DNA of 5,176 bases from IMG/VR virus record IMGVR_UViG_2585427755_000007; one strand, written 5' to 3'. Below the pieces are notes generated by a model. It ran no database searches. It worked only from the letters and a program-made list of their open reading frames with translations, and was not told where the DNA came from. Position numbers and translations under genes: made by a program. Positions 1-5,176 of this stretch are shown in pieces; the stretch's first letter is position 1, and each line of letters starts with the position of its first letter. This DNA is from a virus (lineage: Duplodnaviria; Heunggongvirae; Uroviricota; Caudoviricetes).

Positions 1-142
1 CCCCTACTCCGGTTTTCGAGACCGACCCGATCATCAAACGAAACATAAAATTAGCTCACATTATGAGGAAAGGTATCTTTTTGCGCTATGTAAATTCAAA
101 GGGTTAGCCTCATTTTCCCGATGGCTTTCTCAACACTACTAG

Positions 143-171
143 TTGTGAGCCCTTGCAATGTTCATTAATAT
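143..171 (+). promoter_or_regulatory. Candidate sigma70 promoter for the GIY-YIG gene: -35 TTGTGA (143..148), 17-bp spacer, -10 TAATAT (166..171)
   Basis: Hexamers read directly from the sequence, about 30 bp upstream of ATG 204. Motif match only. Confidence 0.3.
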
Positions 172-203
172 ACGTCTCACAAATAATTCACAGATATTGC
201 AAA

Positions 204-977
204 ATGGATATTACTGAGTTTCCTTCTGGAGTAATTGAACACCTTGGCTGGTATGTATACCGATTGATTGATCCTAGGGACGGAAGCACCTTCTATGTAG
301 GGAAAGGCAAAGGTAACCGCGTATTTGCCCATATGCGCGGTGAAGTGGCAGCGGCTGATGATGACGACTTACTGAGCAACAAGCTAAAGCAAATCAGAGA
401 AATAAGATTAGCGGGACTTGAAGTTATCCATGTCATCCATCGACATGGAATGACTGATGAAAAGACGGCGTACGAAGTTGAAGCAGCACTTATTGATGCC
501 TACCCTGGGTTAACGAATATCATGAATGGTGCTGGCAGCAATGAATTCGGCGCCGCGCATGTCAAAGAGTTGATAGCAACATATCAACCCGAAACCATAA
601 CATTTCATCATAAAGCATTAATGATTTCCGTTAACAGAAGTGCAAAGGATTCAGAGCTTTATGATGCGGTTCGATTTAGCTGGCGCATTAATGTCTCTCG
701 CGCCAGCCAAGCAGAAGTCATTCTTGCGACTGTAAGGGGGATCGTTCGAGGGGTTTTCATTGCTGATAAATGGCTCAAATCAACACGTGAAAATTTCCCT
801 ACGATGAAATACTGGGACGAGGATCCGGACTTTGAGGCAACACAAAGTTCTCGCTATGGTTTTGAAGGTCGAGAAGCCCCACCTGAAATAGCAAATCTTT
901 ATCTTGGAAAAAAAATACCAGATGAATTAAGAAAAAAAGGAGCTATGTCCCCGGTCCGTTACTCACCTAATTTTTGA
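204..977 (+). CDS. GIY-YIG nuclease family protein: N-terminal GIY-YIG domain plus a roughly 140-aa C-terminal region of unknown function
   Basis: ORF open 153..977, but codon 153 is TTG; the first ATG is 204 (MDITEF...). Motif [28 protein letters not shown] fits the GIY/YIG/Arg pattern of UvrC N-terminus and I-TevI, with a downstream YEVEAAL glutamate and an Asn-containing segment (GLTNIMNG). Confidence 0.7.
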
Positions 978-999
978 GTCTTTAAGTGATAAGCATAAA

Positions 1000-1048
1000 C
1001 CGCAGCACGATCTTCTTGCATACGACGTGCTACGGTTTCATTTATCTC
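1000..1048. terminator. Candidate bidirectional hairpin between the convergent GIY-YIG and invertase genes
   Basis: Stem CCGCAGCACG (1000..1009) pairs with CGTGCTACGG (1026..1035) across a 16-nt loop (one C-A mismatch on this strand, a G-U wobble on the other), followed by T-rich TTTCATTTATCT. Weak by eye; overlaps the invertase stop. Confidence 0.3.
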
Positions 1049-1592
1049 CGACCGGAAACTTCTTATACAGTGTCGATATACCAACATCATAGATGATCGC
1101 CACCTTCTGGCGAGGAACGCCTGATGCAATTAATCGTCCGGCCTGCTCCCATTGTTCTGGTGTAAGTTTGGGGCGACGTCCACCAATTCGTCCCTGTGCG
1201 CGAGCTGCTTCCAGTCCAGCTTTTGTTCGTTCAACAATCAGTTCACGCTCCATTTCAGCCAGGGCACCCATCACATGAAAGAAAAAGCGCCCCATTGGGG
1301 TACTGGTATCAATTGAATCCGTCAGACTACGAAAGTTGATGCCTCGTTCGCGCAACTCCTCCACCAGCACGACAAGATGCCGCATACTGCGCCCCAGTCG
1401 GTCCAGTTTCCAGACCACCAGCGTGTCACCTGCCGATAATGTCCTGAGCAGCTTTTTCAGTCCTGGTCTGTCGGACTTTGTACCGCTTATCTTGTCTTCA
1501 AAAATCAGCTCACATCCTGCACAGTTCAGCGCATTACGTTGTAGATCTGTGTTCTGGTCATTTGTTGACACACGTACATAGCCAATAAGCAT
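1038..1592 (-). CDS. pinE: Serine DNA invertase, Hin/Gin/Cin/Pin family (184 aa)
   Basis: N-terminus MLIGYVRVSTNDQ carries the catalytic Ser motif of small serine recombinases; conserved LVVWKLDRLGRS and GRFFFHVMGALAEMERELI blocks; C-terminal HTH (GVPRQKVAIIYDVGISTLYKK). The 184-aa length and the neighbouring tfa/stf cassette resemble e14 PinE; the exact paralogue (pinE versus gin/cin/pinQ/pinR) is not certain. Confidence 0.9.
   Translation of the reverse strand: MLIGYVRVSTNDQNTDLQRNALNCAGCELIFEDKISGTKSDRPGLKKLLRTLSAGDTLVVWKLDRLGRSMRHLVVLVEELRERGINFRSLTDSIDTSTPMGRFFFHVMGALAEMERELIVERTKAGLEAARAQGRIGGRRPKLTPEQWEQAGRLIASGVPRQKVAIIYDVGISTLYKKFPVGDK
1477..1577. promoter_or_regulatory. Predicted Fis-dependent recombinational enhancer inside the invertase 5' coding region (approximate)
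   Basis: In Hin/Gin/Cin systems the enhancer lies in the first 100-200 bp of the invertase gene. The 5' coding DNA here (GTGTCAACAAATGACCAGAACACAGATCTACAACGTAATGCGCTG, as read in the 3585..4139 copy) resembles what I recall of the hin 5' region. Fis sites not mapped. Confidence 0.25.
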
Positions 1593-1646
1593 GAGAAATA
1601 ACCCTGTAAAAATCCGGGATCATGCCATCTGAGCCGAATAACTGCA

Positions 1647-1672
1647 TTTTCTAAAAGGTTGGTTTGGGAGAA
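1647..1672. promoter_or_regulatory. 26-bp pix/gix/hix-like crossover site: TTTTCTAAAAGG-TT-GGTTTGGGAGAA
   Basis: Two imperfect 12-bp inverted half-sites around a 2-bp core (1659..1660). The inner half-site, read on the opposite strand as TTCTCCCAAACC, is close to the gix/hix half-site TTATCCAAAACC / TTCTTGAAAACC. The site sits 54 bp upstream of the invertase start and exactly at the repeat/cassette junction. Confidence 0.7.
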
Positions 1673-3513: not shown

Positions 3514-3530
3514 ACCAACCTTTTAGAAAA
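3505..3530. promoter_or_regulatory. 26-bp pix/gix/hix-like crossover site: TTCTCCCAAACC-AA-CCTTTTAGAAAA
   Basis: Mirror of the 1647..1672 site, core at 3517..3518, 54 bp upstream of the invertase ATG at 3585. Confidence 0.7.
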
Positions 3531-3584
3531 TGCAGTTATTCGGCTCAGATGGCATGATCCCGGATTTTTACAGGGTTATTTCTC

Positions 3585-4139
3585 ATGCTTATTGGCTATG
3601 TACGTGTGTCAACAAATGACCAGAACACAGATCTACAACGTAATGCGCTGAACTGTGCAGGATGTGAGCTGATTTTTGAAGACAAGATAAGCGGTACAAA
3701 GTCCGACAGACCAGGACTGAAAAAGCTGCTCAGGACATTATCGGCAGGTGACACGCTGGTGGTCTGGAAACTGGACCGACTGGGGCGCAGTATGCGGCAT
3801 CTTGTCGTGCTGGTGGAGGAGTTGCGCGAACGAGGCATCAACTTTCGTAGTCTGACGGATTCAATTGATACCAGTACCCCAATGGGGCGCTTTTTCTTTC
3901 ATGTGATGGGTGCCCTGGCTGAAATGGAGCGTGAACTGATTGTTGAACGAACAAAAGCTGGACTGGAAGCAGCTCGCGCACAGGGACGAATTGGTGGACG
4001 TCGCCCCAAACTTACACCAGAACAATGGGAGCAGGCCGGACGATTAATTGCATCAGGCGTTCCTCGCCAGAAGGTGGCGATCATCTATGATGTTGGTATA
4101 TCGACACTGTATAAGAAGTTTCCGGTCGGAGATAAATGA
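3585..4139 (+). CDS. pinE: Serine DNA invertase, Hin/Gin/Cin/Pin family (184 aa), identical second copy
   Basis: Protein identical to 1038..1592(-). Candidate RBS AGGG about 9 nt upstream of the ATG. Transcribed away from the invertible segment, as pin/gin/cin are. Confidence 0.9.
   Translation: MLIGYVRVSTNDQNTDLQRNALNCAGCELIFEDKISGTKSDRPGLKKLLRTLSAGDTLVVWKLDRLGRSMRHLVVLVEELRERGINFRSLTDSIDTSTPMGRFFFHVMGALAEMERELIVERTKAGLEAARAQGRIGGRRPKLTPEQWEQAGRLIASGVPRQKVAIIYDVGISTLYKKFPVGDK
3600..3700. promoter_or_regulatory. Predicted Fis-dependent recombinational enhancer inside the invertase 5' coding region (approximate)
   Basis: Mirror copy of 1477..1577; same reasoning. Not mapped. Confidence 0.25.
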
Positions 4140-4177
4140 AACCGTAGCACGTCGTATGCAAGAAGATCGTGCTGCGG
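4129..4177. terminator. Candidate bidirectional hairpin between the convergent invertase and GIY-YIG genes (mirror copy)
   Basis: On this strand: CCGTAGCACG (4142..4151), 16-nt loop, CGTGCTGCGG (4168..4177), then TTTATGCTTATC. A 10-bp stem with one G-U wobble. Confidence 0.3.
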
Positions 4178-4199
4178 TTTATGCTTATCACTTAAAGAC

Positions 4200-4973
4200 T
4201 CAAAAATTAGGTGAGTAACGGACCGGGGACATAGCTCCTTTTTTTCTTAATTCATCTGGTATTTTTTTTCCAAGATAAAGATTTGCTATTTCAGGTGGGG
4301 CTTCTCGACCTTCAAAACCATAGCGAGAACTTTGTGTTGCCTCAAAGTCCGGATCCTCGTCCCAGTATTTCATCGTAGGGAAATTTTCACGTGTTGATTT
4401 GAGCCATTTATCAGCAATGAAAACCCCTCGAACGATCCCCCTTACAGTCGCAAGAATGACTTCTGCTTGGCTGGCGCGAGAGACATTAATGCGCCAGCTA
4501 AATCGAACCGCATCATAAAGCTCTGAATCCTTTGCACTTCTGTTAACGGAAATCATTAATGCTTTATGATGAAATGTTATGGTTTCGGGTTGATATGTTG
4601 CTATCAACTCTTTGACATGCGCGGCGCCGAATTCATTGCTGCCAGCACCATTCATGATATTCGTTAACCCAGGGTAGGCATCAATAAGTGCTGCTTCAAC
4701 TTCGTACGCCGTCTTTTCATCAGTCATTCCATGTCGATGGATGACATGGATAACTTCAAGTCCCGCTAATCTTATTTCTCTGATTTGCTTTAGCTTGTTG
4801 CTCAGTAAGTCGTCATCATCAGCCGCTGCCACTTCACCGCGCATATGGGCAAATACGCGGTTACCTTTGCCTTTCCCTACATAGAAGGTGCTTCCGTCCC
4901 TAGGATCAATCAATCGGTATACATACCAGCCAAGGTGTTCAATTACTCCAGAAGGAAACTCAGTAATATCCAT
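4200..4973 (-). CDS. GIY-YIG nuclease family protein, identical second copy
   Basis: Protein identical to 204..977(+); same motif evidence. Confidence 0.7.
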
Positions 4974-5005
4974 TTTGCAATATCTGTGAATTATTTGTGA
5001 GACGT

Positions 5006-5034
5006 ATATTAATGAACATTGCAAGGGCTCACAA
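5006..5034 (-). promoter_or_regulatory. Candidate sigma70 promoter for the GIY-YIG gene (mirror copy)
   Basis: Reverse complement of 143..171: TTGTGA, 17-bp spacer, TAATAT. Confidence 0.3.
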
Positions 5035-5176
5035 CTAGTAGTGTTGAGAAAGCCATCGGGAAAATGAGGCTAACCCTTTGAATTTACATAGCGCAAAAAG
5101 ATACCTTTCCTCATAATGTGAGCTAATTTTATGTTTCGTTTGATGATCGGGTCGGTCTCGAAAACCGGAGTAGGGG

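Follow-up and report, generated by a model that had tools for sequence, protein, structure and literature searches.

The window analysed here, a 5,176-nucleotide stretch of tailed-phage DNA (IMG/VR record IMGVR_UViG_2585427755_000007), carries a Pin-type DNA inversion switch, in which the serine invertase gene pin adjoins a cassette of alternative tail-fibre ends. The window is the entire contig JOSJ01000022.1 of the draft isolate assembly GCA_000713655.1, as exact matches to the proteins of its two truncated tail-fibre reading frames show, and in it the invertase and its neighbours stand on both sides of the cassette. We conclude, with a probability of roughly 90%, that the contig is a mis-assembly of an ordinary single-invertase Pin locus that was sequenced in both orientations, and that the duplication is not a real feature of the genome.

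A repeat search over the whole window finds two inverted arms, positions 1-1673 and 3504-5176, each of 1673 nucleotides, which are 100% complementary and are separated by a spacer of 1830 nucleotides. Such identity is far above chance expectation, and the arms carry no polymorphism. A first-pass annotation, made from the sequence before any database search, had described the locus as an arm, a cassette and the reverse complement of the arm, and this layout is borne out. Its corollary, that flipping the cassette gives the reverse complement of the entire window, also holds: the reversed contig (L021) has its arms at identical coordinates. Because the window is a whole contig, the arms, which reach its edges, extend to both ends of that contig.

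The crossover sites are the innermost 26 bp of the two arms; they are inverted with respect to each other and share an identical core dinucleotide, as is expected of the paired sites of an inversion switch. In other respects the window departs from the usual form of such switches, in which one side of the segment carries the invertase and the other carries the constant part of the tail-fibre gene (Sc). Here pin lies on each side, and the constant part is absent. We treat this departure as an artefact of the contig because every related complete genome or long contig that was examined has the usual arrangement.

The search set consisted of 5426 complete E. coli genomes, of which 3254 match the window and none covers at least 80% of it. 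The best coverage is 68%, which corresponds to one arm, the cassette, and 15-24 nucleotides of the second crossover site. Since differing cargo genes beyond pin might mask a two-invertase layout in a search of this kind, the pin-cassette-pin core (positions 900-4277) was also searched by itself, and none of 8084 places in ~3240 complete E. coli genomes reaches 80% of it. One invertase is found in each of the 10 long contigs that encode the exact 200-amino-acid form of the cassette's second tail-fibre assembly chaperone (Tfa'). An arm-specific 34-mer was found at 5 loci in IMG/VR and 3 loci in the JGI metagenomes, each with one match and none palindromic. In the E. coli genomes Sx181 and M8, the gene order is paoCD ... 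GIY-YIG, pin, cassette, tail-fibre constant part, ymfQ, baseplate J, gp46, gp45, and in both the element is a prophage of the e14 family whose tail is Mu-like.

The closest relative is L011 (UGBK01000002.1, a 5.22-Mb contig), in which the arm is identical at 1673 of 1673 positions and is present on one side of the cassette only. Positions 1-3527 of the window are collinear with L011 at 99.745% identity. The 9 mismatches comprise 6 single-nucleotide polymorphisms in the cassette and 3 differences in the outer half-site (3519, 3520 and 3525); beyond these the sequences are no longer homologous. Immediately after the core AA at 3516-3517, L011 changes to the half-site characteristic of the Sc side (GGTTTTCGAGAG), and past the site are the tail-fibre constant region, ymfQ and baseplate J, with no second pin. 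This contiguous assembly of a near-identical strain has a single pin at the locus and no duplication. The first-pass annotation had recommended looking among relatives for the canonical one-invertase layout, which is indeed present in this near-identical strain, although the strain is not the same isolate.

Related genomes contain the locus in two states. The query is palindromic, and therefore the part of it that a genome matches reveals the state of that genome's switch. Genomes in which pin adjoins cassette end A, such as Sx181, match the window from position 1 to ~3518, whereas those in which pin adjoins end B, such as M8, match it from 1659 to 5176. The left junction of the window is the pin-A junction and the right junction is the pin-B junction, so that no junction in the contig is new. 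Both orientations occur in the pair Sx181 and M8, and also in two sister isolates from pig faeces, L025 (NZ_CM149870.1) and L026 (NZ_CM149862.1), whose chromosomes are 5,270,553 and 5,270,552 bp long. When the interval 4120000-4134000 is compared between these sisters, flanks of 7051 and 5116 bp are 100% identical and only a 1870-bp segment is inverted. The two differ there only by the inversion, and the switch therefore flips in vivo. In both sisters ymfQ is split by IS3; their prophage is probably defective, with a Pin switch that is still flipping as the prophage decays. The underlying switch is a known one, the Pin/e14-type host-range system acting on the tail fibre.

A single-invertase locus in two states is sufficient to generate the contig. 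We constructed a test locus from the window arm, the cassette and the Sc flank of L011, once for each orientation of the cassette, and compared its subsequences of length k (k-mers) with those of the window. From k=31 to k=1860, the two states together contain all of the window's k-mers, and at k=1900 they lack 39 of them. Subsequences shorter than the segment are thus accounted for by the two states with no novel junction. Reads or inserts shorter than ~1.86 kb therefore cannot separate a palindrome from a canonical locus of mixed orientation. With one state alone, 15 window k-mers are already missing at k=31, across one junction. The Sc-side and pin-side sites of L011 share an exact repeat of 14 bp within the 26-bp site, or ~15 bp with the next base. 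We considered a collapsed repeat, in which a culture of single orientation yields the palindrome through an inverted repeat longer than k, and rejected it because the repeat is only ~15 bp long and the 15 31-mers are absent from a single state. For the same reasons, both the pin-A and the pin-B junctions must have been among the reads, unless the duplication is real.

The ends of the contig are also as expected of an assembly path that used one flank twice. Each end falls 24 nucleotides within a 62-nucleotide stretch that exactly duplicates the 3' portion of a tRNA-Ser gene, and the L011 sequence past window position 1 (L011 13026-13063) completes this stretch. In a BLAST search, a 73-nucleotide query matches an annotated tRNA-Ser in ~5420 E. 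coli genomes, with 62 nucleotides at 100%, and genomes that bear the prophage hold 2-4 places with the 62-nucleotide sequence. The contig halts at both ends because the same genomic repeat lies there, and repeats are where assemblers stop. The palindrome is the whole contig, its arms are equal and identical, and it ends in a repeat at both contig ends, all of which are signs of mis-assembly. No complete tRNA was detected at the contig ends by ARAGORN, and a scan with Rfam gave only sub-threshold matches. The tRNA-Ser copy is presumably the remnant of an attachment (att) site that marks the end of the prophage. In L001, L002 and L011, however, the element adjoins paoCD and not a tRNA-Ser gene.

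The real locus would consist of tail and baseplate genes, ymfQ, the constant part (98 codons), a crossover site, the cassette with its two pairs of variable end and chaperone facing each other (SvA-Tfa and Tfa'-SvB), the second site, pin, the PD-T4-3 gene and the tRNA-Ser remnant. This canonical order is seen in the relatives. Either the left or the right arm of the contig is most likely replaced in the actual genome by the flank with the tail-fibre constant part, and we infer that the source isolate itself carries this flank. Pin, expressed from outside the segment, would pair the inverted 26-bp sites and exchange strands at the central AA/TT. From homology with Gin and Hin, a Fis-dependent enhancer is assumed to lie within the 5' portion of pin. 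Depending on the orientation, the 98-codon constant head would be fused to the C-terminus with Gp53-like_C or to the one with Collar, and each C-terminus is followed by its own chaperone.

With both orientations in the sequenced culture, the reads would have linked the pin flank to each of the cassette ends, A and B. Coming from the pin flank, the assembler would then have crossed the cassette, continued from its far end along a reversed copy of that flank, and halted on both sides at the tRNA-Ser repeat. A path that goes through the same flank twice and ends at the same repeat gives arms that are perfectly identical, equal in length and extended to the contig ends. An assembly path of this kind was one of two explanations offered by the first-pass annotation. 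The part about leaving through the same flank reversed is supported, with joins that lie exactly at the 26-bp crossover sites and are both natural, but the event would not be a random form of the fold-back chimera that was suggested with it, since reads from both switch states of a normal single-invertase locus would have made the path possible. Under this mis-assembly, the contig carrying ymfQ and Sc would be expected to end at or near CTCTCGAAAACCTTGGTTTGGGAGAA, or shortly into the cassette.

Several points weigh against mis-assembly. The Sc flank is shown for the near-identical L011 and is only presumed for GCA_000713655.1 itself. With four junction types in the assembly graph, many assemblers would break the contig at both ends of the cassette, and mis-assembly does not account for the choice of the pin flank over the Sc flank at both forks. 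A related draft assembly (L022) contains an odd join between pin and Sc, described below, which implies either rearrangements in the lineage or assemblies that are prone to chimeras. Finally, a real duplication, in which a collapsed arm node is joined to both cassette ends, would give the same contig, perhaps more naturally.

Such a real inverted duplication in the isolate was the other explanation put forward by the first-pass annotation, and we regard it as unlikely. The genome would contain the reversed right flank, a site, the cassette, a site and the right flank, produced by Pin-mediated or homologous exchange between copies of the locus. This could occur between sister chromosomes, or through a large inversion between sites of two identical prophage copies. 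The outcome would be a decapitated cassette between two modules of invertase and PD-T4-3, and a reciprocal locus elsewhere with the cassette between two Sc flanks. The contig as deposited does show the first of these structures, and pin-type places in E. coli genomes number 2 at the median and 12 at the maximum, which makes exchange between loci conceivable. Yet an invertase on both sides of the cassette is found at none of the 8084 places surveyed, and the strain with the identical arm has a single copy at the locus with the canonical flank opposite, so that a module truly present on both sides finds no counterpart in ~3240 complete genomes. Exchange would also need two copies that are identical across 1673 bp, tRNA remnant included. 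Gin and Hin invertases require two inverted sites and an enhancer on one supercoiled molecule, and this family strongly disfavours intermolecular exchange. Exchange between sister chromosomes would, moreover, yield an inviable palindromic dimer. If the duplication were nevertheless real, it would represent a natural rearrangement between loci by a Gin-family system, and a switch whose states are indistinguishable.

A variant of the mis-assembly, which we consider less probable still, is that the sample contained two strains or sub-clones with the segment fixed in opposite orientations, which the assembler merged in the same way. Complete genomes are found in either state, and the k-mer argument needs both junctions rather than active switching. 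Against this, the record is an isolate assembly and its arms are without polymorphism; pin is intact and full length, with Ser9 retained; and the near-clonal L025 and L026 differ by the inversion, so that switching within a culture is the simpler source of both junctions. Least probable of all is a chimera made during library preparation, by fold-back or template switching (a hairpin artefact of amplification or adapter ligation) and independently of the switch: palindromic contigs are a known product of such events, but these fold back at any position and leave hardly any spacer or none, whereas here the joins are exactly at the inner edges of the sites with an intact 1830-bp cassette between them, and both occur in normal genomes, leaving no artificial junction in the contig. 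Hairpin artefacts of this type were screened for in a study of E. coli EC958 (PMC4134206).

The coordinates of the features in the window are collected below.

Table 1. Features of the 5,176-nucleotide window, with the evidence for each or its composition
Feature	Position	Strand	Evidence or composition
Left arm	1..1673	.	tRNA-Ser fragment, PD-T4-3 GIY-YIG gene, pin and crossover site
Right arm	3504..5176	.	Exact reverse complement of 1-1673; pin 3585..4139 (+), PD-T4-3 4200..4973 (-)
Unique portion of invertible cassette	1674..3503	.	1830 bp between the arms
tRNA-Ser fragment, presumed att-type remnant at prophage end	1..24; mirror 5153-5176	- (1..24)	L011 sequence past window position 1
LEM-3-like GIY-YIG protein, 257 aa, predicted PD-T4-3	204..977; mirror 4200..4973	+; mirror -	PF22945 E 3.6e-14; RefSeq annotation
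pin, serine DNA invertase, 184 aa	1038..1592; mirror 3585..4139	-; mirror +	Resolvase and HTH_7 domains
Left crossover site, 26 bp	1648..1673	+	TTTTCTAAAAGG-TT-GGTTTGGGAGAA; core 1660-1661; outer half-site of pin-side type
Variable tail-fibre C-terminus A (Sv, Gp53-like_C), 117 aa	1664..2017	+	PF21882 E 1.4e-18
Tail-fibre assembly chaperone, variant A (Tfa), 143 aa	2020..2451	+	PF02413 (Caudo_TAP) E 4.7e-30
Tail-fibre assembly chaperone, variant B (Tfa'), 200 aa	2423..3025	-	PF02413 E 4.8e-30
Variable tail-fibre C-terminus B (Sv', Collar), 162 aa	3025..3513	-	PF07484 E 6.4e-15
Right crossover site, 26 bp	3504..3529	+	TTCTCCCAAACC-AA-CCTTTTAGAAAA; core 3516-3517; the left site is its reverse complement

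The invertase is a full-length small serine recombinase. In a domain profile search it matches PF00239 (E 1.3e-51) and PF02796 (E 3.9e-13), and it aligns to the solved structure of Gin (3uj3) with E 1.1e-95 across residues 1-181. The active-site Ser9 is kept, within VRVSTNDQ / MLIGYVRVSTNDQ, and in RefSeq relatives the gene is named pinE. The first-pass annotation had called the cassette decapitated, a description that the open reading frames confirm. Full-length tail-fibre protein A has 215 amino acids in M8 (L002) and L003, and protein B has 260 in L001, L004 and L011, such that the 117- and 162-amino-acid reading frames of the window are each short of exactly 98 constant N-terminal codons. 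Two regulatory features proposed for the arm, a candidate terminator and a promoter of the GIY-YIG gene, are not supported by a simple consensus scan. It found 0 terminator-like sites in the arm, against 1.4 expected, and the 2 promoter-like sites there (3.2 expected) are no more than chance would give and are not upstream of the GIY-YIG gene.

The GIY-YIG gene corresponds by sequence to the known single-gene anti-phage defence PD-T4-3. The PADLOC model for this system (PDLC04031) matches the predicted protein with E 1.7e-140 over residues 1-256 of its 256-position profile, which is its full length. The gene occupies a slot just past pin, at the end of the prophage. In related prophages the same slot contains an mcrA-type HNH gene (L003 and L008), DUF3037 with HipA_2 (L007), or an open reading frame of 1484 amino acids (L004), and it looks like a variable slot for defence genes and other cargo.

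Some smaller observations concern sequences around pin. The draft contig L022 (JNNF01000123.1, 2108 bp, from another isolate) is 100% identical to the arm over window positions 285-1501. At L022 1217/1218, which corresponds to window position 1501, nucleotide 92 of pin is joined to approximately nucleotide 72 of the tail-fibre constant region. The join is in inverted orientation and lacks microhomology, and the contig then continues via the Sc-side crossover site into cassette end B. L022 fits an inversion of ~2.2 kb with end points in pin and Sc, or a chimeric contig. A 15-nucleotide repeat, AAAATYAGCTCACAT, occurs at 47-61, near the tRNA remnant, and again at 1501-1515, which is 91 nucleotides into pin (mirror copies 3662-3676 and 5116-5130). 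Its second copy begins exactly where L022 departs from the window. Chance alone is roughly estimated to produce ~0.3 such pairs, so that the repeat is probably a coincidence. A 34-nucleotide inverted repeat with 76% identity (I2) is likewise compatible with chance. A possible natural precedent for two invertases, the genes called Hin1 and Hin2 in the P1-like phage vB_EcoM-813R1 (L024, ON470617.2, 6124-6695), was rejected because they represent a single split cin-type gene. The two pieces overlap and lie on one side of the cassette, apparently as the result of a frameshift or a sequencing error.

The biological weight of the locus is small, since it is a known Pin/e14 switch beside a known defence gene, PD-T4-3. 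It is of use as a worked example of how an active inversion switch can be turned into a perfect palindrome during the assembly of a public draft, which may then be mistaken for a duplication of the invertase module. The sites share an exact repeat of only ~15 bp, and a contig of this kind therefore itself speaks for the presence of both orientations in the culture that was sequenced. Searching public data for similarly built palindromic contigs could be an inexpensive way to flag active invertible segments. Palindromes that span a whole contig should be screened for in annotation pipelines and genome scans before they are interpreted. Literature searches on palindromic contigs and on the accession JOSJ00000000 found nothing useful.

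Among known systems, the nearest is Pin with the P segment of the e14 element of E. coli K-12 and of e14-family prophages, which has the same Sv-Tfa / Tfa'-Sv' cassette. As in e14, 26-bp crossover sites flank the cassette of the window, its invertase is annotated pinE in RefSeq relatives, and both orientations are found in nature. L003 and L008, two of the relatives, occupy the e14 position and have an icd fragment together with an HNH gene of the mcrA type. In contrast to e14, the window has pin twice and no constant part, which we attribute to mis-assembly; its cargo past pin is PD-T4-3 rather than an mcrA-type gene, and in L001, L002 and L011 the locus adjoins paoCD. The Gin system and G segment of phage Mu, along with Cin of P1 and Hin of Salmonella, have the same design, in which one constant tail-fibre head is combined with alternative C-termini and every C-terminus has a chaperone of its own. 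In the relatives the adjacent tail genes are also Mu-like, and correspond to Gp45, Gp46, Gp47 (Baseplate_J) and Gp48 (YmfQ). Unlike those of Mu, the variable domains here are Gp53-like_C and Collar, and the constant part, with its 98 codons, is far shorter.

The closest parallel for the contig itself is E. coli EC958, where ~50% of reads from a culture had a prophage tail-fibre segment in the alternative orientation (Forde et al. 2014, PMC4134206). Spurious contigs arose at three prophage tail-fibre switches in that genome, and its authors warned of artefactual duplications in phage regions (PMC4134206). The cause proposed there is the same as that proposed here, namely a culture of mixed orientation, ~50:50 in EC958, that confuses the assembler (PMC4134206). 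The crossover sites of the EC958 prophage Phi2 (…CCTT GGTTTAGGAGAA and …CGTT GGTTTGGGGGAA; PMC4134206 Table 3, with consensus) resemble the …AGGTT GGTTTGGGAGAA of the window. The form of the artefact differs, in that long reads from EC958 yielded an additional contig, in which the correct flanks enclose the inverted segment, whereas the window is one palindromic contig in which the same flank is used twice.

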